DNA of 64,000 bases from Eledone cirrhosa (lineage: Eukaryota), in contig OZ024740.1 of NCBI GenBank assembly GCA_964016885.1, positions 184,574,001 to 184,638,000 of the forward strand. The letters are read 5' to 3'. Position 1 is the stretch's first letter. Every line of letters begins with the position of its first letter. Below, in pieces: positions 2,985-63,480 of this stretch. The position numbers were made by a program, and so were the translations under genes. A model generated the notes under the pieces. The model made no database searches. It saw only the letters and a program-made list of their open reading frames with translations, and was not told where the DNA came from.

Positions 2985-3027
2985 ACGATGCTGACGATAG
3001 CTAATAAGCTTGAAACTAGTACATCGT
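2985..3027 (+). ncRNA. Minimal type-I hammerhead ribozyme motif (family A)
   Basis: ACGATG-CTGACGA-TAGCT-AATA-AGCTT-GAAA-CTAG-TA-CATCGT: 6-bp helix I, CUGANGA box, AGCT/AGCT helix II, GAAA box, palindromic CTAG helix III, GUA cleavage triplet. Confidence 0.85.
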
Positions 3028-5400: not shown

Positions 5401-5536
5401 TACTTCTGATTCATTTTACACCCATTTAAAACATGATGCCCTCAGTCCTATTTAGTTGTCAATATGAGAAGGTGCTTGAATAATGCCTTTAAATATCAAA
5501 GATTTCCAATTTTATTTTCATTCAGTATTTTAAAGT

Positions 5537-5677
5537 ATTGATACCATGGAACCTGAGAATGAGAACAAACACCTTGAAAGTCTTCATTATGATAAAAAAA
5601 AAGTCAATACTTTTTTTTTATCATAATGAAGACTTTCAAGGTGTTTGTTCTCATTCTCAGGTTTCATGGTATCAATA
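5537..5677. repeat. Near-perfect fold-back inverted repeat (arms about 65 bp)
   Basis: TATTGATACCATGGAACCTGAGAATG...GATAAAAAAAAAGT followed after a 3-4 nt loop by its reverse complement. Confidence 0.9.
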
Positions 5678-6029
5678 TTAAACATATGTTTACATATTGG
5701 ATTCATAAGCTTTGTTTCATAAGCTTTGATTCATAAGCTTTGTTTCATTTGTTTCATTTGTACATAATTTCAAATATTATGTTTTATATTGCTTACACTT
5801 GGTAATATCAGATGCTACCATTATGCATATTAGATATGTTGCTCAATTTACACATTAAATGCACAGCTATTATGTACTGACACCTTTCTAAATGCTAAGT
5901 ACACATTGATTGTCACTAGACCAGTTAATCACATGGGGGTGGGGGTAGGGGGTAAACATAGAAAATGACGTGGCCAGAATACTCAGCTTTATTTTGCCCC
6001 AACCCAAAATTTCACGACATACTTGTGAA

Positions 6030-11800: not shown

Positions 11801-12027
11801 TTAACCCCAAAATGTAGCAGAGATTATATAACATTTTATTTCATATCTTATTATAATTTTTTTTTTCTACTTTTGGCACAAGGCCAGCAATTATCCCAGT
11901 GCAAAGTACCAGTAATGCACTGGAATAATTGCTGGCCTTGTGCCAAAAGTAAAAAAGAAAAAAAAAAAAAATTATAATAAGATATGAAATAAAATGTTAC
12001 ATAATCTCTGCTACATTTTTGGGTTAA
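11801..12027. repeat. Fold-back inverted duplication of flank plus SINE tail
   Basis: 11801-11902 is mirrored by 11915-12027, and the arms include the family-2 SINE end GGCACAAGGCCAGCAATTAT. Confidence 0.9.
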
Positions 12028-26928: not shown

Positions 26929-29900
26929 CTACAGACGTATATTCACTCGGACCATTCTCGCTACATTCACCCACCTTTCAACAAACTTGCTAGAAAGCAG
27001 CACTTGCCTCTCCACCCTGATTTTCCTCTTCAAGTGAAACTTGAAAAAGTTAATCAGGGATTCGCCGAAGAGGAAAGTGTTTGTCTTTAATCCTTTTAAC
27101 CTTGTCCACCACACAATCTCTTTCGCCATGGCCACCAGGCAGATGAAAACCGCCTGCCCTTCCTCTTCGAAGGAAGACGGCGAGACCATCTGCACAATGG
27201 ACTCAGTCGACAACCGGATCAGTCCCACACGTGACAGCAACTGTTCGACATAGCTCCACAAGTCAGCAATGCTCGGGCACTCAACGAGTGCGTGCACAAC
27301 GGTTTCGTCGCTATGCGTGCATCTCGGACAGGCTCGGCTGACGGCACTTCTGTGCCTGTAGAGCTTATCTCGAACCGGCAGCGCTCCCCGGTAGCACTGC
27401 CAGGGATTTTTGGAAATTATCCATAGGCCCCGGGCTGAAAGTTCTCCGGAAGAGAGCAAGCAGCTGATCTTCTTCGATGCCCAAGATCTCTCCGAGAACG
27501 TCGTCGCTCTTCCCCTCAACTAGTCCTCTATAGAACGCCGAGGTGGATGTTCCACCGATACTGGTGCCCAACTGGGAGAGGGCAGTGAGCGCCTGGAGAC
27601 ATTCCAGTTTCCAAGCGCTATCCCTCGGTCTTTTGTTGACCCAGGACTGCAGCTCCGTCAAGGAGACGAACTGTGGGAAAATGTGCCTGGTGAACGGCGA
27701 CCACACCCGTTCACCATCAAGGAAGCACCAGAGATGTCGCAGCCTCAGCGCATGTTTGCACATCATCAGCCATGGCATGCCCAGTCCTCCACCGAACGGG
27801 TGTTGACAGCAGATGGATCGTCTGACCATGGGAGCACGTCCCTTCCACTAAAAGCGGAAGTGGAGGCGCTCCATTTTGGTGAGAGTTGGGTTGGAGCAAG
27901 GGACGACGGTGAGGCGGTAGCAGATGACGGATGCGATGTACGCATTCGCCACTTCCGCCCGGCCTTTCAGGGACAGCTTCCTCTCAGCCCATTTCTGGGT
28001 GAGGGAGGCCACCTTGCTCGTCACCTCGTTCCAGTTTTTCTCCATCTGGAGATCCGGTTCCGAACCAGACCCCGAGCAATTTAACCGGTCCGTCCGTCCA
28101 ATGCCCTATGACGCTGTCGGACGGCATGGACTTGCCTCTCCAGGTGCCTAGCTGACAGCCCACCGACTTTGCTCCTGTCACCGTTTCGTATTCCTTGGGA
28201 GTGGTGCCGAGCATATGGACGTGTCTGGTGCTCGACACCACCACGGTGACGTCGGCAGCGTAAGCCGACTCGGATTTCCCGCATCCTAGTTCGCGTGGGA
28301 CGCCCATCATCGCCCCCAGTTTGTGCAGTAACGGCTCGAGAGCCAATACGTACAAGAGGGACGAGAGGGGACAACGCTGGCGGACTGAGCGCATGATGCT
28401 GAACGGCTGCGACAGGTGACCGTTCACCCTCACAGCCGAGCAGATGTCGCTGTACATTGCTGCCATCCAACGCCTGAAAACGGGCCTGAAACCAGCTGCC
28501 TCGAGGACCGCCGCTAGGTACCGATGGTCGACCCTATCGAATGCTTTGGATTGATCCAAGTTGATCAGAGCCCCACCCTTGCCAGGTTCCTTAACCACCC
28601 TCTCTATGATGTATCGCATGAGGTGGAGGTTGTCGTCTATGGATCTGTCCGGGATGGCGCATGTCTGCGCCTCTCCCACCAGACCCTTGACGACAAGCGC
28701 CAGCCTCGTTGCTAACACCTTGGCCAAAATCTTGAACTCTGCGTTTAGCAGAGTTATGGGCCTGAAATTATCAATAGCATCCCCCTTTTTCGGTCTTTTC
28801 TCAGCAGCGCCACTGCTCCCCGGCTCACAAAACTGTGAATTCTCCCGTTCTGCTGCCAGTTGCAGTAGACGTCTGCCAAGAGGTCACCGAACAAGTCTGG
28901 CATAAATGCATAAAGCTCGTAGGGCAGACCATCTAAACTTGGCGATTTATCTCTTGTGCAGTTAGCCATCGCTTCCCGTATTTCACCGGCTGTTATTGGC
29001 TTTTCGCAACACTGTGTTGCTGTCGTTGAGAGCCGAGGCAGTCCGTCAAGGTATGCACTGAAGTCCATGTCCCGATCCGGGCCGCCGCCGCTCCCGAACA
29101 GTTCAGAAAAGTGCTGCTGAAAAGCTTCACACATCCGCTCGGGTTCGAGCATCACGCACCCGTTTTGGTCAGACAAAGACCGAATTGTGGCTTTATTGCC
29201 ACGTCGCGCCTCTGCCACCCGGGCCCATTGGACGGCTTTTGTCTCCTCGTGTTTCAGAGCACGCGCTCTAGCTCTGACAACGCAGCCTTCGTGTTTTGCA
29301 TTGAAGAATTGGTCGAGTGCCAATCTCGCCGCAAGCACGTCGGTTGCGATGCCTGTCCTAAACGCCTCTTCTAGCTTTCTGACTAGCTCTCCCTCTACTC
29401 TATTTTCCTCTATCACTACTCCTTTGCTAAACCTAATCGACTCTACTTTAATTTCCCTTTTCAGGGCGAACCACCACCTGTTGTTGACGACCGCTCCCGT
29501 CAACGCCGGCTTAACTAATACGCTAATCCGGTATCTGTAGGCCTTGCGCGCCGGGAAAGACGCGTTCAGCTTCCAGTAACCAGGCCCTTGTCTATGAAGT
29601 CTGTTTATGTCGATCTCACAGATCACAAATTTGTGGTCTGTGTAGTCGACTATTTTAAATTGTGGACAACTTATACTAGCCTTATCTAGTTCCCTGCAGA
29701 ATACCCTATCTAGATACGATCTGGATGATCCGATACGGTTTGTCCATGTCCACATTGGCACATTCGGGTGATGCAGTCGATACCTGTCAGACAGTTCAAA
29801 ACGTCTGAGCAGGCTGGTGAGGCTCTTGCACCCTCCTCCCCTATCCACTAGCCCCACACGATCCCAGCGTGCATCCAGATACCGTTCCAGTCGCACACTA

Positions 29901-30311
29901 ACACTAAAGAGCGGGACGTTCCAAGAAAGGTCTCTAGACGTCTGAAGAAATCTGGCCGTCCTGCCCCTGTTGGAGCGTAGACGGCTACTAGCCTGAAAGC
30001 ATTGCCTTCGCTGCCGGTCACGTCCAGCACCACCGACTTACCTTCTGGGTCCAGGAAGATGGCCCGTATCGCGAGATCCAAGCCTCTCCGAAAAAGGACA
30101 GCAACCCTCCCCCCGATCCTGGACGGCTGGGAGATGCGTATACATCGTAGCCGCCGAAGTTCGGTGCGAAGGCCTGTGCCTCGGAGATTCTGGTTTCACT
30201 GATGGCCACCACATCTATGTTTAGTGACCTGAGGTCATTGAGCAGGTGACCCTGCTTCCAAGATGACCCCAGGCCACGTGCATTTATACTGCCTATTCTG
30301 AGTACAGCCAT
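26929..30311 (-). pseudogene. A1 ORF2 (APE endonuclease + reverse transcriptase + zinc finger), disrupted
   Basis: Collinear ORF fragments 30018-30347, 29848-30081, 28754-29896, 27984-28727, 27848-28045, 27365-27829, 26929-27519. Confidence 0.9.
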
Positions 30312-42830: not shown

Positions 42831-45223
42831 CTTTATTGCTCATTTGTCAAATATTCTGTGACCTCTTAAATAAATATCTGTTCTCTTTTGCACCTTCTCT
42901 TCTTTCTGGGCTTAAACGTCCACTCCATCTTGTCTTTTGTTTTCTGGTGTGTTTTACACATATACGTATATTATTTTATGTTTTCCTGTGATTTTGTGTT
43001 TCAATATATGATTTTATAGCTTATAGAAAAACATATCTGAATGTTTATTTTTACACACCTACACACACGTAGTCAGTCATTTTCAACAGTGAGAATTCAG
43101 TTATTTAATCAAATGTATATGTGATTAAATAATCCAAAAACACATGTATTGTTAATATAACTCTGAGGTCAAATACACCTGGTATAGAATGTGACAATAG
43201 TTGCACCATTGAATTTATGGTACAAACAATCCAATGGATTTCTACAGTTTCCTTCTATCTAGTTTTAACCACAATATACCAAGAATTTTCTTGAACAACA
43301 TATTCTTTGAAATTAATTTTTGTAGAATAGTTTTTTGAATATATTATTTCATAAAATATACTACTGTCGGCAACCTCCTGCACAATAGTCATACCATCCA
43401 TATCAGGTGTCTTTAACTTGCAGGTCATGCCATGAGGAGCAATGAACTTACTACAAAACTTTTACCTTAGAGGTCCATTAATGTAAAATACAAACGTGAA
43501 AGACCTCTCAAGGAATTGAAGAGACTGATTGAGGAAGATACAGTGAAGAACTGAAGCAGTTAATGCTTGATCATGTGAGATGAAAAGGTTTTATCATGTC
43601 ACAAAAAAAATGGATGAATTTAGTAGTTAGTTAGTAGTAGAATATATTTTTTGTCAATAGTCATTTGATTTGTGATTGCTGTTTAATATTATTTTATAGA
43701 CATCAAAACATCAGATCAAATAATCAGACAATATAGTACAAAATTCATTAGATTCTGCTTCTGTGTTTGATCAATATTGATTATTTTTATCCATAGGTGT
43801 GATGGAGTTTGTGTTGTGTAGAATAGGAATAATGTAAGTTAATTCCAACTGGTTTTTCTTTTTGTATATGTTAGCTACAAGACTTTTAACAATATCATGA
43901 CTTGGAGATATGACATGTAAAAAATAAATGTCTGTTGACAGAAATGATATTTAAAAAAACAGCTGACCAATAACATGTACCAGCTCTAACACAGATTGAA
44001 GCATGAAATACAGTATCCAGAGTACAGGGAAAGAGCTGTGTGATGTACTGATTTCAAAACATTTTCTGGGCATATATTTTGTTCAGGATTGAAAATGTAA
44101 TCCTTTTTATTCAATTGTCATCTTTATTACATACCCACATGGGTGCCACTCCCCTACCCACATCCATTCTCACTGCATAATGCAACATCCCAGACACCTC
44201 ATAATACATCTGCATGTCTGACAAAACACGGTCATATGACTGTGACCTTGCCCCGTTTATGGTTATGCTATTTAATATGCATTTTGTCTACAGTAAACGA
44301 CTTCTGACTCAGAGAGTTTTATTTGTGGTCACTCCTCTCAAACTTGACAGCTTATTTCACTCATTTCAAGCTGGTAGCTCAGGCAACAGTTATTATCAAA
44401 AGATGATTTAGATTTTACTACTGCTCTTTGCTGCATGTGTGAATGTACACACACATGTGAGTGTTATTGGGTAGGATACATGAGTACCTGTGCATGTGTA
44501 TGTATGTAAGAAAGAGAGAGTATCAATGTTTATATGAGTATGGATGTGGAATGTTTGTGCGTGTTTCAGCAGTTTTCTTGCTGCACAATAAATGGGTAAA
44601 TTTGTAATTCACCTCTTAGCATAAAGGGAATGCACTCACATGATATTTAAGAGATATAGAGATTGATTCCGTGTAGGTATGTCAGGCCACATTTTTTGGT
44701 CTCTAGGAATAATTTAGCCGATTTTAATAGCAGATATATTTATAGTGATTGGCTGCGCTTCAGGTTATTTTCTATGCTTGGCATTTTCACATTTCTGAAT
44801 TTTTATACATTCATGCCTACATACATTCCCAAAATTATGCATGTATTAACTGCATGTACACATGTACAGATGCATAACCTATGCACATGCACATATGTAA
44901 CTCAAAACATCCACATACACACATAGAATAACTTCCATACCTGCACTTACATGCATGCAAACATGCATACATATCTTGCTAGTTGAAGTTGTCTAAATTC
45001 AAATAAAAATGTCTTGTGTATGTTAAAAACTGACTCTCTCGCTATTGATAAAAATTTATAAAATTATAAAACCAGAAAAATATACATACATATATATGTT
45101 TGCACAAGTGTAATATTTTTGTTTATGTGCACATATCTATCTATGTGTACACGCACACACAAGGGTATCATATATATATATATGATACCTTTGTGTGTGC
45201 ATGTACACATATACATATATTGC

Positions 45224-45289
45224 CTTATCAGACGAACCAATGTGGACATCTCTTGTGTTCGTCCTGTTCGGGAAACCTTGGGTAATGAG
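45224..45289 (+). ncRNA. Degenerate hammerhead-like motif (family E)
   Basis: CTTAT-CAGACGA-A-CCAA..GGAC..GTCC.TTCGG-GAAA-CC TTG GG-TA-ATGAG. Helices I and III pair, but the core has a U4A change and helix II is imperfect. Confidence 0.4.
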
Positions 45290-45475
45290 ATAATTATACT
45301 GTGTGGTTTATATATTATTATACATTAAATATTTAGCTCTGTTACTTACATAGAGCACTCTTCATTCCTTTTACTTTTTCCACAGAAACTTCAACACTTA
45401 TACACATATATATATATATATATTGTAATAAAATAACAGGAGGCTGGACTTATGTAAATCCTTGAAAGGTTTATT

Positions 45476-45533
45476 ATACTATGATCATTTCAATGACCGG
45501 GTTCCGTATGAATCCGGTGTTATCATCAGGTAT
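45476..45533 (-). ncRNA. Hammerhead motif (family B), left arm
   Basis: ATAC-CTGATGA-TAACACCGG...CCGGTCATT-GAAA-TGATCA-TA-GTAT with palindromic helix III. Confidence 0.75.
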
Positions 45534-45627
45534 TCGAAATATAACAAAGGAATATAACAGATAAAATCCATGGGGCTGAAAATCATACACAAGGGGATGA
45601 CTGTTATATTCCTTTGTTATATTTCGA

Positions 45628-45685
45628 TTACCTGATGATATCCCCGGATTGATACAGAAGCCGGTCATTGAAATGATCATAGTAT
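45628..45685 (+). ncRNA. Hammerhead motif (family B), right arm
   Basis: TTAC-CTGATGA-TATCCCCGG...CCGGTCATT-GAAA-TGATCA-TA-GTAT; more decayed than the left arm. Confidence 0.65.
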
Positions 45686-45871
45686 AATAAACCTTTCAAA
45701 GATTTACACAAGTCCAGCCTCCTGTTATTTTATTATAATAATTAGCTCCGTACTTGCACCACCAACTACACAAACGAAGACGGGTGAGTTGCATTACGTT
45801 GAGTACTCTCCATTACATCGAGATTGACCATACAGAATGACCAATTCTATCCAGTGGTGAACCAGCAAACC

Positions 45872-45944
<73 letters not shown>

Positions 45945-46094
45945 TTATGCTTTGGGAGGGTCATGTTGCCAATAAAAAACACACGCACCAGATGCTTTCA
46001 CTCCAATTTATTATAAATTAAATTTATAAATTTAAGAATTTATAAACTTCCGGTTGGTTGGTTGGTTCCACAACCGGACGGTTGTTCATATATT

Positions 46095-46137
46095 GTCAAA
46101 GTTCTTTCGTCACACATTCTGTGATATCTTCAGTGAC
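46095..46137 (-). ncRNA. Minimal hammerhead motif (family C), left arm
   Basis: GTCA-CTGAAGA-T-ATCACA-GAATG-TGTGAC-GAAA-GAAC-TT-TGAC. Confidence 0.65.
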
Positions 46138-46254
46138 TGGGGATTCTTTTCTTTGTTTTGTGCCTCTCCTTTGTTTTGTCCTACGCCATCTTGAAAAACA
46201 AGATGGCGTAGGACAAAACAAAGGAGAGGCACAAATCAAAGAAAAGAATCCCCA

Positions 46255-46297
46255 GTCACTGAAGAGGTCACAGAATGTGTGACGAAAGAAATTTGAC
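46255..46297 (+). ncRNA. Minimal hammerhead motif (family C), right arm
   Basis: GTCA-CTGAAGA-G-GTCACA-GAATG-TGTGAC-GAAA-GAAA-TT-TGAC. Confidence 0.7.
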
Positions 46298-46710
46298 AAT
46301 ATATGAACAACCATCCGGTTGTGGACGCAACCAACCGGAAATTTATAAATTCTTAAATTTATAAATTTAATTTATAATAAATTGAAGGGAAAGCAACTGG
46401 TGCTTATGTTTCTTATTGGCTAGATGACCCTCCCAAAGCATAACAATATCGGTTTCAACACAGGTTTTCAGATAAAGAATCTTGCTAAACAAATTCAGAA
46501 ACGAAATATATATATATATATTTATATATTTATGTATGTATATATATGAAGGATTCACTCTGACAGCAGAGCATCTGTCATTTCAACAGCTAGATCCGAG
46601 CACGAGCTCAGCTGTTGGGGTCCCAAATCTTTCATATTACCCAATCTACCACCCCAAGTATCAAGTTCTCTGGTGAGTAATGGCCTAACTGGTTTTTACT
46701 GCATCCATTA

Positions 46711-46747
<37 letters not shown>

Positions 46748-46752
<5 letters not shown>

Positions 46753-47188
46753 TGAAATAAAATGAAAACAAAATTTCATTTCTCACTCTTAGTATGGCAC
46801 TTACTTAAATGTAAGTATGCATGTATACGTACATACATATATGTATACAGACGTACAGTAGCATGTTAAGGCAACCACGTCACCTTTTTGTTCAACACTG
46901 ACACAGGAACGATTGTACTAGTTTCAAGCTTGTTAGCTATCATCAGCACCGTTTACCCATCTGCCAGATAGTTGAACGTTCGAAAGTATATACTTTCCTT
47001 ATGAAAATTAACGGCTGAGCAGCCTAATTTGCATATTGAGTGAGTTAAATCGGTCAGGCATACCGAAAACGATAAATTGAAATAAAATGAAAACGAAATT
47101 TCATTTCTCACTCTTAGTATGGCACTTACTTAAATGTAAGTATGCATGTATACGTACATACATATATGTATACAGACGTACAGTAGCA

Positions 47189-47262
<74 letters not shown>

Positions 47263-47380
47263 TATGCATACAGGTACACATACATATATGCACGTATCAG
47301 TTTACGGACGCTTATTATAACGCGGCTTTGTTCGTTTGTAAACAAACTGAACAGCCTGAATTTATGCCATACGGTGTTAT
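46748..47380 (-). mobile_element. Second copy of the partial-tandem hammerhead element (family A)
   Basis: Reverse complement homolog of 2251-3310 without the SINE. Internal direct repeat 46748-46866 / 47074-47190. The 3' end abuts (TA)n. Confidence 0.8.
46909..46952 (-). ncRNA. Minimal hammerhead motif (family A), second copy
   Basis: ACGGTG-CTGATGA-TAGCT-AACA-AGCTT-GAAA-CTAG-TA-CAATCGT. Differences from 2985-3027 fall at N7, loop II, a wobble pair and a bulge. Confidence 0.82.
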
Positions 47381-47593
47381 ATATATATAGTATTAATTAT
47401 ACTATTTATGGTTATGCAAATACAAAAACCTTTTGTAGTTATATATATTTTTATAAGCCCTAAATAGTGGTAGGCAGTAATATATTACTACCTTATTACC
47501 AGTAAGTTAAATAGCTCAATGTAATAACATCAGATGTTTTACAGAGCAGTTATATGAATTATAAGAATCAAAGAACTGTTCAAAACATTTTTA

Positions 47594-47640
47594 TGCTTAC
47601 AACTGTTTCCTCCAAACCAAGGTTTGGATTCTTCGGAGCA
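47594..47640 (-). ncRNA. Hammerhead-like motif (family D), left arm
   Basis: TGCT-CCGAAGA-A-TCCAAACC-TT-GGTTTGGA-G-GAAA-CAGTTG-TA-AGCA; core has U4C. Confidence 0.6.
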
Positions 47641-48159
47641 ATTTATTATTGAATGAACACTTATATGACCTCCTATTCACCCAAGAGACATACAGATACA
47701 TATGCAAATATTGTGGGTCAACATTCATTACAGCATTTAGTGTGGCAGTACACATTTAGAGATTACATTCATATTAAAAGATACAATCAAAAATACAGGT
47801 TAAAATACATGAAATTAAGCGGTTATAGAGTGCAATGGTTATATGTGTGGCAAGCACGTGCTTCTTGTTTATATAGTGTGGCAGAGAGTTACGTGTAATA
47901 GAAGCATTTAAGCAGGTAATCTATATAAACAAGACGCACGTGCTTGCCACACATATAACCATTGCACTCTATAACCGCTTAATTTCATGTTATATTTTAA
48001 CCTATATTTTTGATTGTATCTTTTAATATGAATGTAATCTCTAAATGTGTACTGCAACACTAAATGCTGTAATGAATGTTGACCCACAATATTTGCATAT
48101 GTATCTGTAAGTCTCTTGGGTGAAAAGGAAATCATATAAGTGTTCATTCAATAATAAAT

Positions 48160-48206
48160 TGCTCCGAAGAATCCAAACCTCGGTTTGGAGGAAACAGTTG
48201 TAAGCA
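48160..48206 (+). ncRNA. Hammerhead-like motif (family D), right arm
   Basis: TGCT-CCGAAGA-A-TCCAAACC-TC-GGTTTGGA-G-GAAA-CAGTTG-TA-AGCA; core has U4C. Confidence 0.6.
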
Positions 48207-48251
48207 TAAAAATGTTTTGAACAGTTCTTTGATTCTTATAATTCCTAATTC

Positions 48252-48330
<79 letters not shown>

Positions 48331-57560: not shown

Positions 57561-57866
57561 GAGATGTTTCTTGGTTGGTTGGTTTAATCACACACAAATT
57601 ATACACACACACACATCTAAAGTGAGAGAGAGACAGGGAGAGGAGCAGAGAGAGAGAGTGTGGCAATGAACGCGGGTACTCCACATATATATATATATAT
57701 ATATATATATTGTTATACTTTGGGAGGGTCATGTTGCCAATAAGAAACACACGCACCAGTTGCTTTCACTTCAATTTAATTTAATATATATTTATAAATT
57801 TACAAATTTATAAATTTCTGGTTGGTTGGTTGGTTCCACAACCAGATAGTTGTTTATATATATATA

Positions 57867-57909
57867 GTCATAGTTCTTTCGTCACACACTCTGTGACCTC
57901 TTCAGTGAC
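57867..57909 (-). ncRNA. Minimal hammerhead motif (family C) in the Penelope 3' repeat
   Basis: GTCA-CTGAAGA-G-GTCACA-GAGTG-TGTGAC-GAAA-GAAC-TA-TGAC, on the same strand as the PLE ORF. Confidence 0.82.
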
Positions 57910-58218
57910 TGGGGATTTCTTTCTTCGTTTCTGTGCCTTTCCTTTCTTCTATCCTACGCCATTTTGTTTGTGTGTGGGTTGCGTGCTCAGTTTGCGCATG
58001 CGCCACATCCGGGTGTCTGTGTGTGTTTGTGTTCATTTTTCTATTTTTCTATTTATATTTGTTTGTTTATTTATTTTTTATTTATTTATTTATTGTTGGT
58101 TGGTTGTTTGTTCTATGTGTGTGTGTGTTTTCATTTTGTCTTGTGTGTGTTTTCATTTTGTGTGTGTTTTCAATTGTAAGTTGTTTGTTCTATGTGTGTG
58201 TGTGTTTTCATTTTGTCC

Positions 58219-60681
58219 TTAATTGTAAGTTGTGATGTTGCTGTTCCACTCATATTTTCTATTTAATTTTGGTTTTAATTCTTTTATGCTTACTGCCTCT
58301 GTAATTTGCCTAAACATTGCGTCTTTCTTGTGTGTGGATTCTATTTTTATTTCTATGCTCTCTAATTTACCCCTGTGTTCTATCTTAGCATGTTGGTAGA
58401 GCACAGATGATTCTTTACTATCTTGGAGGTCTCGCCAGTGTTCATTTATTCGTTCCTCTATACTACGAGCTGTCTCACCTATGTACACTATATTTTTGTT
58501 TCTACATTGTCCTTCAGTACATCTTATGCTATATACTACATTTCTAGTTTTACAGTTAATATGGAGGCTTATTTTACAGGTTATACATTTCTTATCTATA
58601 CATGAGGGTCTTTGGAACGGGTATGTCTTGCTAATAAGTGTTTTTACGGAGGTACCAGGTCTTTCTACTATCTTAATAATGAGATTATGTTTCTTTAGGG
58701 CCCTTCTAAATTTGTAGGCTAGTTCGCCTCTAGGGGTTGTATTGATGAACATTACACTCTGGTATTTATTGCTATCATACCATGAGTTTATTCTATTGGC
58801 CTTGTTCTTAGTTCTTTCTATTCTATTCCAAAATTTGCTCCTATACAAGGGGCAGGTCCCATTTATGTCATTATTTACCATTTTTTCCCATTTGGTTCTG
58901 GCTCCTTTATACACTCTGATTCTATCTCTCTGATTGTAGCCAGAGAACTGCATACGGTGGATGAAGTGTTGTATGTGTCTCTCTAGTTCTTCGGGGTTGC
59001 ACATGCGGGACACATTTCTCATCACCCGTACCAAATCCGCAATCAGTATGTTGATTTTGGTATGGTCCGAAATGGCCGAGTTTCGGTGGATCAGATGTTT
59101 GGAAGTCATGGGTTTGGCATAATGGGAATGGAGGATTTGTTTTTGGTTGTTAATAGTATCTAACCAGAGCTCTGTGTCTAGTACAGGTAATCGATGGTTG
59201 GGGTGTCTACTTGGGTAGTCTATAGTAACTCTAATGCTCTGGTGGATGGAGTTTGCTATTTGCTGGATGCTTTCCATTGTGTTTTTCTCTGGTTCCTGAC
59301 TGTTCTTTAGTGGGGGTGTCTTAACTACGATGTTTATATCATCTACGTAGCGGGAGTACATTATCAGGGTTAAGCTGTCTTCTAATTGTTCATTAAGTTT
59401 TTGTTTAAGTCTACTGTCCCACCATACCATGAACAAGTTAGCTATGTCGCCTGCAATGCTAACACCAATGGCTGCTCCTTCCTCTTGGGCATATGTTTTA
59501 CCATTAAATTTGAACATATGTTCCTTAAGGGTTAATTTTATGCTGGCCCCTACCGCATGTGCAATCATTTTCTTCAGTTCATCGTGGTTTTCGGGTGTCC
59601 GTATGGCTCTGGTCCACCTGTTCCATCTATCTGTGTGGGTTTTCTTGGCCATTGAGGTAATGGTAGGTGGTCTGCCTCTTGCTGGTCTTGTAGGGCACAG
59701 GTTGCTAAGGTCATAAGTGTCTAGGTAACTATTACTATGGGTAAGCTTAAGTAGAAGTCCCAGCTCACTGGTATCAATCCCACGGAACTCAACCTTGCTC
59801 TCGCTGATCATTTCGACGCATTTCTCCACAGCAAAATCCACGTCAATAGATGGATACAGGGACACAACATCCATACTGCCTATTATGCAGTTTGTTAGGT
59901 CCCCAGATCGGTTACCCGCGCCGATTCTGCTGAGGAGGTCCTCCGTGCTGTCACACACATCTGGGGACATCTCAATGATGGGGCGTATGATCAGGGAGAG
60001 GAAGTAGGACAGTCTGTAGTTACTAGCAATGTTAGCCCCACAGACTGGCCGTGTTGGTGGTCCCGCGACAGGGTCCCAGCCCGTTTTATGGTCTTTTCGA
60101 AGCCCATACAACGCCGGCACGTCATTGTTCCAGGCCTGGAAGTTGTTGGCAGTCCTTTTGTTGGGCTGCATTATATTTGTCCACATCACCATATGGGCAT
60201 TGAGGGTTTTTTCTCTATCCTCATGCTCCTGTGGTGTTACCTCTCTTGTGTTAGTGATGTGGGGTTGCATTGCCTGGATGTAGTTTGGCAGGCTGTCAAC
60301 CGACATTCTGCCAGACTTGTCTGTTGGAAAGCATGCTATCTCTCCATTACGCGAGCGCTGCATGAGCTTACGCAAGCCATTTGCAGATTCTTCTCCCAGT
60401 TGCTGGGCCTCTATTCTATTATGCTTCTTGCTATACTGTTCTATAATATTTCTAAGTTCGGATTTAGCTATACTAAATTGTGCTTCTGTTTGTTCATCGA
60501 CCTGCGACGGCAACTGCGTGCGTTTGTTAGAAACGAAATATATATATATACATTTATATATAAAGACAAAGAGAGAGAGGGAGATTTGCGTGTTCTTGAT
60601 TGTTTCACGGCCAGCGTCTCTGACTGCATCAGCGAAGATTTGTGTGTGTGTGTGTTTGCGTGTGTGTGAGTGGCATCCCAC
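58219..60681 (-). CDS. Penelope-like reverse transcriptase / GIY-YIG endonuclease (open frame; first ~60 codons probably not genuine)
   Basis: DKSG, LYGLRKDHK, PTRPVCGAN, SMDVVSLYPSID, QEEGAAIG, RYVDD, LPVLD, HYAKP, then CxxC...VVYSIRC...YIGETARSIEERINEH...EAVSIKELKPKLN. Confidence 0.9.
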   Translation of the reverse strand: MGCHSHTRKHTHTQIFADAVRDAGRETIKNTQISLSLFVFIYKCIYIYFVSNKRTQLPSQVDEQTEAQFSIAKSELRNIIEQYSKKHNRIEAQQLGEESANGLRKLMQRSRNGEIACFPTDKSGRMSVDSLPNYIQAMQPHITNTREVTPQEHEDREKTLNAHMVMWTNIMQPNKRTANNFQAWNNDVPALYGLRKDHKTGWDPVAGPPTRPVCGANIASNYRLSYFLSLIIRPIIEMSPDVCDSTEDLLSRIGAGNRSGDLTNCIIGSMDVVSLYPSIDVDFAVEKCVEMISESKVEFRGIDTSELGLLLKLTHSNSYLDTYDLSNLCPTRPARGRPPTITSMAKKTHTDRWNRWTRAIRTPENHDELKKMIAHAVGASIKLTLKEHMFKFNGKTYAQEEGAAIGVSIAGDIANLFMVWWDSRLKQKLNEQLEDSLTLIMYSRYVDDINIVVKTPPLKNSQEPEKNTMESIQQIANSIHQSIRVTIDYPSRHPNHRLPVLDTELWLDTINNQKQILHSHYAKPMTSKHLIHRNSAISDHTKINILIADLVRVMRNVSRMCNPEELERHIQHFIHRMQFSGYNQRDRIRVYKGARTKWEKMVNNDINGTCPLYRSKFWNRIERTKNKANRINSWYDSNKYQSVMFINTTPRGELAYKFRRALKKHNLIIKIVERPGTSVKTLISKTYPFQRPSCIDKKCITCKISLHINCKTRNVVYSIRCTEGQCRNKNIVYIGETARSIEERINEHWRDLQDSKESSVLYQHAKIEHRGKLESIEIKIESTHKKDAMFRQITEAVSIKELKPKLNRKYEWNSNITTYN

Positions 60682-60939: not shown

Positions 60940-63480
60940 CATCTATCGGTGTCCACCAAATGGTTGAAATCTTCAAGCAAAAGAGAAACTCAGAGATGGG
61001 AAACAGAAATATTAAGGCAAGAAGAAAGACGATGGAAACTTTCTGAAAGTGAACAGAACTTGAGTAGGGAAACAGAAAGATTAAGGCAAGAGGAAAGACA
61101 ATCGCAACAAACGAAGGCTGAATATGAAAATCACCGAGAGGCAAAGAGTTGTGATGCAAATGAGGTGGGCACAAAGGACTCTTCAAGGCAAAATAAACTG
61201 GCTAAGAGCTACAATTTCCTATGATCCATCGAGAAATTATAGAAATGATTAGAAATTATAGAAATGATTATAGTGGTGATTAGTAGCATGGATATTATAT
61301 GCAGTAGTTGTGGAGTGAGAAAATGGAAAGGAGAAACACTTAGTAGAATAGGTCAGATTTCCACTGATAGCAGACCCACCACCTGTTATTCGTATACTGC
61401 TTACAGACCATACTAACGAAGCTAAACACTTCAGGAGCAATGTTATGCGGTATAATGCTGGATTTCAGATGACGTCCTTTGGAGCTGAAAAATACCATAC
61501 TGACTATGGTTATTTCACAACGTTTAAAATCCAAGGACAATGCTACCATTTAATCAGCGGTTTACTCCCTCGAGCTAATGAGGAAACAAAATGCATTCAA
61601 GCTTAATTTTTGGGCAACAATGAACAAGAAGCTACTCAACGATGCAGAAATATTTCTGGTGGTCTTCGGCTACAAGTTATTAGCAGTCTGCAAAATATGC
61701 TTCATGAAAACCATCATTACATAAGAGCATTGAAATTTGCGTTAGAAAAGAAAAAAGGCAAACCCCCATCTATAAAATTACTATTAAACCTGATAAAAAA
61801 ACAGCAAAGGAACACAAAAGACGTTACAACAAAATACTGCAATGTGAAGTGGCTGTACTTATCGTCAATGAACAACACAAATCCAGAGACAACATTGTAC
61901 CAGAGAGATCTGACCAATTACTAAGAATGTCAGAGACACACAGAGCATATGATGCTCTTCGGTATCCTTTGATATTTTGGAGAGGTCAGGATGGATACAA
62001 TTTCGCCTTAAGACAATTAAACCTTAGTACAGGTGAGGAAACTAATAGATTGGTCAGTTGCAAATGTTTTTATTAATTTCAGTTCATAATAAGAGATTGC
62101 TTTAACCATATCCTAAGAATGGGAAGACTTACAAGCCAATTAATGATTCATGTGTATGCCAAGATTGAAGCTAAATGGTTGGCATTCATTAAAACAACCA
62201 AGCTAAACCTAGAGCAGAGCAATACATCCATTTTAGAGACACCATTATAATTGATGGAATGAATTCTTCCAGTGTTGGTCAGCCAGTCATTCTGCCATCT
62301 AGCTTCACAGGCAGCCCACGCTATGTGGCTGAGCGCACACAAGATACCATTGCATATGCAAGAAAATTTGGTTGTCCAGATCGTTTCATTAAATTTGCAT
62401 GCAACCCTACATGGCCAGAAATTCAAAATGAACTGTTTGAACACCAATATGGAAAAGTTTCATAGAATCATTGCCAAAGTTTTTAATGAGAAACAGAAGA
62501 TCTTCACATGATAACCAATTGAATGAAATTAAAACATGCCCAACCGGGAGATATATTTCTAGTAATGAAGCCATATGGAGAATCTTTGGTTTCGACATGC
62601 ACAATAGAAACCCAGTAGGAAGTACACAATAGAAACCCTGTAGGAAGTTTCGTGCCTGTCTGAAATAATGATTTCAGACAGGCACGAAACTTCCTACAGG
62701 GACGAGAGCCTATATTGTAAACGCTTGCCTCAAAGTCTCAACTATATGACAACAAGTTCAGCGATTGCCTTTGAGGACAAACATGAAAGTGCAGTTGTAC
62801 AATGATGCAGAAATTGATACAGAAATTAAAACAGCTAATTACACAGGGTGATGGAAATATGCAACAAAATGAAAATGGAAATATCTGTAATACAACAAAT
62901 GAACTAATTGATCAAGTATTTCCAAATGTTGCCTCAAATTATATCAATCTGTTATGGCTATTTGAGCAAGCAATTTTAGCACCAAAAAATAATATGGTAA
63001 ATCAGATCAACTAATGCCTGCTCGATACGCTCCCAGGGGAGGTTCATACGAAGCTGTTAATTATCCTGCAGAGTTCCTTAATAGTCTGGAACTTCCTGGA
63101 CTTCCTCCACATAAATTAATGCTAAAGATTGGAACACCCACCAACCTTTTGAAAAACCTGGACCCACCACGTCTATGCAATGGCATGCGCTTAACAGTGA
63201 TGAAACATCTCCTAGAGGTCACTATTCTTGGAGGCAATCATCAAAGCAAAAATGCATTTATTCCAAAGATTCCACTTATCCCTTCATCTACCGAGCTGCC
63301 ATTAGAGCCAATTTTGCTATGATCATAAATAAAGCTCAATTTTGCTATGATCATAAATAAGTCTCAGAGTTGTAGGATTGAATCTGAGAGAATCATGTTT
63401 TACCCATGGTCATTATATATTGGTTGTACACGAGTGGGAACATCTAGAAATCTTCATATAGTATGCACAGTAAAACAAAG
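60940..63480 (+). mobile_element. Decayed, internally deleted Helitron (Rep + PIF1 helicase)
   Basis: [126 protein letters not shown]. Confidence 0.92.
62636..62701. repeat. Perfect hairpin (arms about 31 bp) at a Helitron deletion junction
   Basis: CCCTGTAGGAAGTTTCGTGCCTGTCTGAAAT-AATG-ATTTCAGACAGGCACGAAACTTCCTACAGGG. Confidence 0.9.

Follow-up and report, generated by a model that had tools for sequence, protein, structure and literature searches.

Head-to-Head Penelope-Like Element Insertions Form Hammerhead-Bearing Palindromes in Eledone cirrhosa

Results

A 64,000-nt stretch of the Eledone cirrhosa genome (GenBank assembly GCA_964016885.1, contig OZ024740.1, positions 184,574,001 to 184,638,000, forward strand; hereafter the window) carries within 3 kb three long palindromes, here called P1, P2 and P3, whose arms belong to families of Penelope-like elements (PLEs). 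The aligned arms lie at 45421-45560 and 45601-45740 (P1, 94% complementary), at 45939-46193 and 46199-46449 (P2, two blocks, 93-95%), and at 47553-47876 and 47921-48247 (P3, two blocks, 97-99%). An earlier note on this DNA had placed three inverted repeats here and judged their sequences unrelated; the repeats are confirmed, with arms 93-99% complementary, and the best cross-family blastn match between arms has an E of 0.13.

From left to right, P1 opens on a (TA)n target remnant at its short end (45407-45422), followed by a 181-nt inverted arm (45421-45601, minus strand), which is the 5'-truncated end of the pseudo-long terminal repeat (pLTR) of a non-coding PLE-type family, with the short 3' end and a 95% match to the natural long copy L121 (L numbers denote loci fetched from the assembly). 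The 140-nt direct arm (45601-45740, plus strand) runs into a tail of 135 nt (45741-45875, plus strand; 140 nt in L121), which in tandem copies continues into the next unit. The tail end of P1 and the short end of P2 have one (TA)n tract, 45876-45941, in common. P2 consists of an inverted arm of about 252-255 nt with the short 3' end (45939-46193, minus strand), a direct arm of about 257 nt (46194-46449, plus strand) containing a likely start codon of an open reading frame (ORF) at 46424, and a 56-nt tail (46450-46505, plus strand) that forms the first ORF codons in tandem copies, with (TA)n following at 46507-46520. In P3 the tail lies on the left: 163 nt (47390-47552, minus strand) adjoin (TA)n at 47378-47389 and lead, in the tandem copy L134, into the ORF's start. 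The tailed inverted arm is about 366 nt (47553-47921, minus strand), and the direct arm, about 325 nt with the short 3' end (47921-48247, plus strand), is followed by (TA)n at 48257-48292.

Each palindrome thus has a tail on one arm only. What look like central loops are the 5' extension of the longer arm, and the joints fall at 45601, 46193/46194 and 47921 (0-1 nt overlap). Once tails are counted, all six outer ends lie at, or no more than about 10 nt from, (TA)n; the earlier note had claimed this for at least one end of each unit, and its extents left out the one-arm tails. Outside CpG, the arms mismatch at 8/132, 14/239 and 6/311 positions (2-6%). In four of 21 public runs that were compared (two contig sets and two read sets from restriction-site-associated DNA sequencing), we saw pile-ups of other family copies and none spanning a palindrome, which speaks neither for nor against the assembled structure.

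The PLE connection made in the earlier note was right: long copies, tails and partial tandems place the arms in PLE families. The long copies share more than 1.6 kb of sequence upstream of the arms. P2 frames match the Pfam reverse transcriptase (RT) domain RVT_1 with E of 3.3e-5 (L126) and 2.1e-4 (window 58222-60522), both below the Pfam curated cut-off, and weak GIY-YIG matches in P2 and P3 frames (E about 0.02) are below it as well. We assign P2 and P3, from their sequence, to the endonuclease-containing (EN+) PLEs, with an RT and C-terminal GIY-YIG-type nuclease frame upstream of the repeat in long copies. P2 has a CIDKKCITC linker (CX2-5CxxC), C-TEGQ-C inside the core (CCHH motif) and DKSG (DKG), and by these motifs, which cannot part Neptune from Nematis, it appears to be a PLE of Neptune/Nematis type. 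The P3 RT has no Pfam match, although PLE motifs are visible in its frame: RWR (RVRWRT), DKT (HADKTNN), CxCX5C (CNCRANRTC), CxxC (CNLC..E) and CxH (N....CQH), without CCHH. This motif set and the (TA)n target suggest that P3 is a Hydra-type PLE, an assignment made from motifs and not from a tree. RWR, DKT, the CxCX5C linker, the lack of CCHH, CxxC and CxH flanking E and N, and the (TA)n target are all likenesses to the Hydra clade as described in PMC8557442 (the diagnostic set has RWK against the RWR of P3), where units are generally <3 kb, unlike the P3 unit of about 4.2 kb. As a side observation, the antisense of the P3 3' region (47682-47770, plus strand) resembles by eye a broken C2H2 zinc finger (C-x2-C-x12-H, stop, H), which may be chance.

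Full-length and compound copies show how the units are built. L134 is a complete 4.2-kb pLTR-ORF-pLTR tandem of P3, L121 and L133 are inverted long-plus-short units, and in the tandem copy L127 the frame of the P2 ATG runs through the tail into N-terminal ORF sequence. Partial tandems that form pLTRs, an inverted 5'-truncated copy and an optional tail were found for all three families (L134, L133, L121 and L127). The window itself holds a long 5'-truncated copy of the P2 family (57707-60529, minus strand), with a 767-aa stop-free RT and GIY-YIG-type frame (58222-60522), a hammerhead motif at 57866-57910 and the short 3' end on (TA)n. At its other end, an 11-nt inverted stub (60529-60539, plus strand) matches the P2 tail end and is followed by (TA)n; this would likely be the long copy's minimal partner arm, the match being short and suggestive only.

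P1 is a 2.1-kb non-coding, hammerhead-bearing unit (L121:377-2594, minus strand; L166-L190), with partial tandems and inverted copies in diverged subfamilies. No stop-free frame of at least 90 aa occurs in L121 between 300 and 4200, and tblastn gave no match inside the 2.1-kb unit. PLE frames near P1 in L121, L124 and L127 were considered as its coding partner and rejected as separate insertions. P1 is filed here, on structure only, as a non-autonomous PLE-type family.

Hammerhead calls rest on a custom descriptor of the minimal type-I motif, which matched six places in the window (four palindrome arms and two others) against a mean of 0.02 in 100 shuffles. The arms matched are P1 left (45476-45533, minus strand; CUGAUGA / GAAA UGAUCA UA, intact by the descriptor), P2 left (46095-46137, minus strand), P3 left (47594-47640, minus strand; the U4C core variant CCGAAGA) and P3 right (48160-48206, plus strand). 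The earlier note had seen a hammerhead in every arm; this holds for four of the six, and one damaging change is found in each of the others, a stem I mismatch in P1 right (45628-45685, plus strand) and the loss of the stem III closing pair in P2 right (46255-46298, plus strand), where A replaces the family's C at 46291. A scan of the window with Rfam models (E<=10) gave no hammerhead match, and only hairpin-driven microRNA matches under the gathering scores.

In the motifs, a long stem II accompanies a stem I of 4-5 bp and a tiny stem III, and the core is followed by an unpaired base. By the descriptor and per-column conservation, the motif is present in the pLTR of all three families. Core nucleotides are kept across genomic copies within each family, and other families keep the core with different stems. 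The P2 motif has a UU cleavage site. In P3 the core is CCGAAGA, with C at position 4, in 31/31 scored copies; this U4C change lowers activity in vitro, yet is tolerated in a viroid (PMC3088659). Minimal PLE hammerheads have been reported as inactive as monomers and weak as dimers (PMC4209133). A read-through transcript of a palindrome is predicted to be a long rod (minimum free energy [MFE] -235 to -570 kcal/mol) in which the motif pairs with the opposite arm, the computed probability of stem I being < 1e-38. On either strand the single motif is transcribed later than its own complement, with which it is computed to be 89-100% paired. No pile-up of 5' ends at hammerhead cut sites was seen: one of 175 scored 5' ends, from a sample whose main arms were selected to be longer, falls within 5 nt of a predicted site. 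It appears that the hammerheads ride along because they are sited in the pLTR, and that two per palindrome would be a by-product of that position, buried in the hairpin of read-through RNA.

Other hammerhead-like sequences were noted along the way. A degraded repeat at 45219-45297 (plus strand; core CAGACGA) resembles an intact descriptor match at L193:2789-2866 and comes just after a small palindrome (45143-45210) that has a TA run at its centre. A minimal hammerhead of another family lies at 2985-3027 (plus strand; CUGACGA, GAAA CUAG UA), with relatives in L194 and L196 and a head-to-head arrangement at L247:53-421. Sixty evenly spaced 10-kb stretches (599,800 bases, about 0.6 Mb; L191-L250), fetched for the palindrome census below, contain 27 minimal hammerhead matches of roughly ten families, or about 45/Mb, with stems varying around the same core.

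The window lies on a 443-Mb contig of the 3.0-Gb genome, and searches with each arm gave between 1,095 and 2,201 candidate copies. The 40 best of every search were scored, and 30 fetched. Of the 90 loci selected with a single arm, 41 have the head-to-head arrangement (11/30, 18/30 and 12/30, the window's three included), and nine more have the 5' end out of view. The pairs scored number 65, including 23 from loci picked with the whole P1 unit. Duplicate rows were dropped before counting (L136, L139, L152 and L160 are the places of L001, L011, L003 and L017), L163-L165 were left unscored, and three loci with inverted partners outside the pairing rule (L066, L030 and L161; gap > 60 nt or broken arm) were scored as singles.

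In every family the 3' end of a copy falls at one of two fixed sites, the short end or a site 55, 140 or 166 nt farther on. The region between them is the PLE tail; in tandem copies it continues into the start of the next unit, and in P2 an ATG within the pLTR shares its reading frame. One tailed arm is combined with one short-ended arm in 61/65 pairs (binomial p about 1e-17 against independent ends). Three pairs are unclassifiable, and the sole pair with two tails (L070) is a read-through into a tandem unit. The arms are commonly not nested: the short-ended arm reaches > 5 nt farther 5' than the tailed arm in 34/61 pairs, the tailed arm is the longer in 22/61, and the two are equal within 5 nt in 5/61. 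(TA)n lies at 116 of the 130 outer ends. The shortest partner arms are tail-only pieces and 10-nt stubs (L048, L069 and window 60529-60539), and the longest exceed 1 kb.

The joints vary widely, with an overlap of at least 3 nt in 22/65 (null 4-6%), blunt ends in 10/65 and inserts of at least 6 nt in 11/65, several of these being local duplications. Minor variants are shared within pairs in 84/305, 25/171 and 20/66 cases against permuted means of 0.063, 0.040 and 0.052, levels reached by 0, 0 and 4 of 2000 permutations. At three P1 columns the arms agree in 30/32, 30/34 and 29/33 pairs, where about 17 would be expected. In P2, a cluster of 5' ends at about 46194-46210 of the window, 239-272 nt upstream of the short end, takes in 15/49 scored ends and both arms of 8/19 pairs, and similar clusters occur in P1 (201-226 nt) and P3 (449-503 nt). 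Directly after the P2 cluster stands the word AAGATGGCG, which we take to be a YY1-type motif, and the cluster is likely the RNA start.

In the census of the sixty stretches, 13 palindromes of at least 200 bp were found, about 22/Mb, three of them in one stretch. In eight of the 13, one side has (TA)n within 15 nt and the other has it at a distance of 33-167 nt, which is the one-tail signature; some of the 13 may have an origin outside PLEs. The strict descriptor matched in one of the 13 and twice in none, with one more head-to-head pair at the edge of L247, and hammerheads on both strands are not typical of census palindromes. Three palindromes in 3 kb are a local cluster in TA-rich DNA, not a rarity. 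The earlier note had argued from three families in so short a space to a general mechanism; such a mechanism exists, and it is one already described, as an inverted 5'-truncated PLE copy.

Discussion

We consider it probable that each palindrome is one PLE insertion, made of two 5'-truncated copies joined head-to-head, that arose when the two ends of a (TA)n break each primed synthesis at one of two fixed start sites on the RNA and the complementary DNAs (cDNAs) were then joined. The anatomy of the insertions is read directly in the DNA, and from it we infer the steps. A GIY-YIG nuclease would cut both strands within (TA)n. One 3'-OH would start reverse transcription at the pLTR end, yielding the short end, and the other 55-166 nt downstream, yielding the tail; both primers would copy the same source RNA towards its 5' end, whether one molecule twice or two molecules from one locus, and host end-joining would seal the two cDNA ends. 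The combination of the one-tail rule, the non-nested arms and the shared subfamily alleles favours such two-ended priming and end-joining. Since the short-ended arm so often extends farther 5' (34/61), neither arm of such a pair can be a DNA copy of the other. A purified lizard PLE protein has been shown to cleave and extend each of the two strands, with initiation at two internal positions delimiting the tail and with hammerhead cleavage dispensable (PMC11167929). Of the two origins offered in the earlier note, priming from both sides of a break in a TA microsatellite is the one that best fits the genome-wide anatomy, as a conditional account.

Several points weigh against this account. In the lizard system no difference in start site was seen between top and bottom strands (PMC11167929), so that a strict one-tail rule is not itself predicted; a tail arising through nuclease resolution has been suggested (PMC8557442), and a hairpin intermediate later trimmed by staggered nuclease cuts could also yield one tail per insertion. 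Gene conversion between arms could partly explain the shared alleles, and the sharing is uneven: one P2 column shows no excess (6/11 against 6.0 expected), and the window's own P2 arms differ at 6/12 scored columns. The overlap counts come from mismatch-tolerant BLAST ends and probably overstate microhomology, target-site duplications are unreadable in (TA)n, and choosing the best candidates favoured young copies. For P1, no coding partner was found among 30 GIY-YIG loci or 25 tandem read-through loci.

The same PLE insertions might have gained their inverted arm through fold-back self-priming, either of the first cDNA or of antisense RNA, the latter proposed by Arkhipova et al. 2013 (PMC3846280) on the basis of palindromes found at inverted junctions, the hairpin then being resolved by staggered cuts that leave a tail on one side. 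Such a route accounts for shared alleles and for one tail per insertion; P1 has a stem-loop near its 5'-end cluster, 175-222 nt upstream of the short end, and the short overlaps at joints could be the priming sites. We nevertheless think it unlikely. A simple fold-back makes one arm the copy of the other, and the 34/61 non-nested pairs can be rescued only by later trimming. The joints are scattered, many of them blunt (10/65) or with inserts of at least 6 nt (11/65), neither of which fold-back priming needs, and partner arms shrink to stubs of 10-40 nt beside (TA)n.

The second option of the earlier note, in which the palindromes would be fold-back mini-elements that propagate themselves, carry a ribozyme in each polarity and move, or replicate as RNA, as one unit, has some points in its favour: both arms extend past the hammerhead in all three window units and in 29/42 unselected pairs, the core is conserved within families and kept by different families with different stems, and the transcript would be a long rod of the stability given above (MFE -235 to -570 kcal/mol). 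Mobility as a unit should leave recurring junctions, for which the same note had proposed looking. Exact recurrence was seen in none of the 65 pairs; in five P1 pairs the two sides coincide to within 3 nt, yet their joint sequences differ, and a whole-unit search, made for P1 only, did not show the window's P1 junction in any of the 26 loci with the best match to the complete P1 unit. In 13/42 unselected pairs the partner arm is too short for the motif, so that these cannot hold two hammerheads, and two of the six window motifs are damaged. The single motif on each strand is computed to be 89-100% paired to its complement, minimal PLE motifs are inactive as monomers (PMC4209133), and, of the 175 scored 5' ends, only one maps 5 nt or less from a predicted cut site. 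We give this option very little credence, and do not class the palindromes as viroid-like ambisense RNAs or mobile palindromes. It is equally far-fetched to regard them as assembly or library artefacts, or as chance back-to-back insertions of two independent copies. Palindromes can form as read chimeras, and with over 1,000 candidates per family some chance encounters might be expected. Artefacts would hardly produce arms that diverge by 2-6% outside CpG, end at different biologically defined sites and obey one rule in 61/65 pairs. Independent insertions would meet at (TA)n, oriented at random and without alleles in common; the arms here meet at TA-free 5' joints and share alleles.

Head-to-head PLE insertions fall within a known kind of structure. 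Inverted 5'-truncated PLE copies were described by Arkhipova et al. 2013 (PMC3846280) and in PMC8969392, and Craig et al. 2021 (PMC8557442) draw such a copy with a one-sided tail in their Fig. 2. Our insertions resemble the EN+ PLE insertions with inverted pLTRs of PMC3846280 and PMC8557442 in the head-to-head pairing of a 5'-truncated copy with an inverted 5'-truncated copy, the pLTR hammerhead, the tail that is often at one end only and consists of the first ORF codons, and the (TA)n targets. They differ in having tails of 55-166 nt rather than 30-40 nt, and in that the whole insertion here is often just two pLTR-sized stumps; the sections of those papers on inverted copies do not count the one-tail rule, non-nested arms or allele sharing over many loci. 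Cervera and de la Pena 2014 (PMC4209133) reported opposite-strand hammerhead pairs 100-700 bp apart in Cercyon PLE remnants of Schistosoma mansoni. These are likewise two minimal type-I motifs on opposite strands a few hundred bases apart, in which stem I is short (4-5 bp) and stem II long, the core is followed by an unpaired base, and stem III is small and often palindromic; host and families are different, as are the fixed U4C core of P3 and the UU cleavage site of P2. Non-LTR retrozymes also carry type-I hammerheads in non-coding repeats, and P1 is non-coding and PLE-like in structure. The retrozymes of bioRxiv 10.64898/2026.07.22.740005 are head-to-tail tandems with a same-strand hammerhead in each unit, unlike the unique junctions and one motif per strand seen here, and with all three window units head-to-head we rejected that class.

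The palindromes are a real feature of known kind that adds three new family members, and the counted one-tail rule is a modest increment. Our literature search, which left older subscription papers and supplements outside its reach, found no paper that counts this rule or proposes a two-primer model. The object itself is ordinary; its value lies in a dataset on how tandem and inverted PLE structures form, a question that Craig et al. 2021 (PMC8557442) call still undefined. The counts (61/65 with one tail, 34/61 not nested, shared alleles, joints resembling end-joining) favour two-ended priming and offer the existing in vitro PLE system of Frangieh et al. 2024 a sharp prediction. In addition, PLE palindromes are a dense source of potential long double-stranded RNA (dsRNA) and, if transcribed, have a bearing on both editing and silencing. 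Octopus has been reported as exceptionally rich in potential for long near-perfect dsRNA and in hyper-editing, in an account whose octopus section leaves the repeats unassigned and which finds Penelope heavily edited in lizard (PMC5625713); we hypothesize that PLE palindromes of the present kind may supply such dsRNA.

A wider proposal, possible in our view though on the doubtful side, reads the strict rule of one tail and one short end as the trace left in the genome by a reaction for which two primers are obligatory and which has not been described for other retrotransposons. In it, a dimer of the PLE protein would cut both (TA)n strands, and two RTs flanking the tail on one RNA would copy it twice. 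Head-to-head palindromes would then be the normal product, with partner arms from zero to > 1 kb. At the census density of about 22/Mb, with the one-sided tail-like offset in eight of 13, the reaction would be a main maker of long near-perfect hairpin RNA in this genome, hence of substrate for the very high A-to-I editing reported for octopus.

Other Features of the Window

A very high-copy repeat at 46747-47374, between P2 and P3, contains a 119-nt direct repeat (46747-46865 and 47072-47190) between TA runs. Reads and contigs of its other copies join 47374 to 46864, and the window copy therefore looks permuted or partly tandem. A 427-codon stop-free frame (28757-30037, minus strand) lies in a GC-rich stretch at 26-40 kb, and further palindromes occur at 5526-5686, 11801-12027 and 62636-62701.

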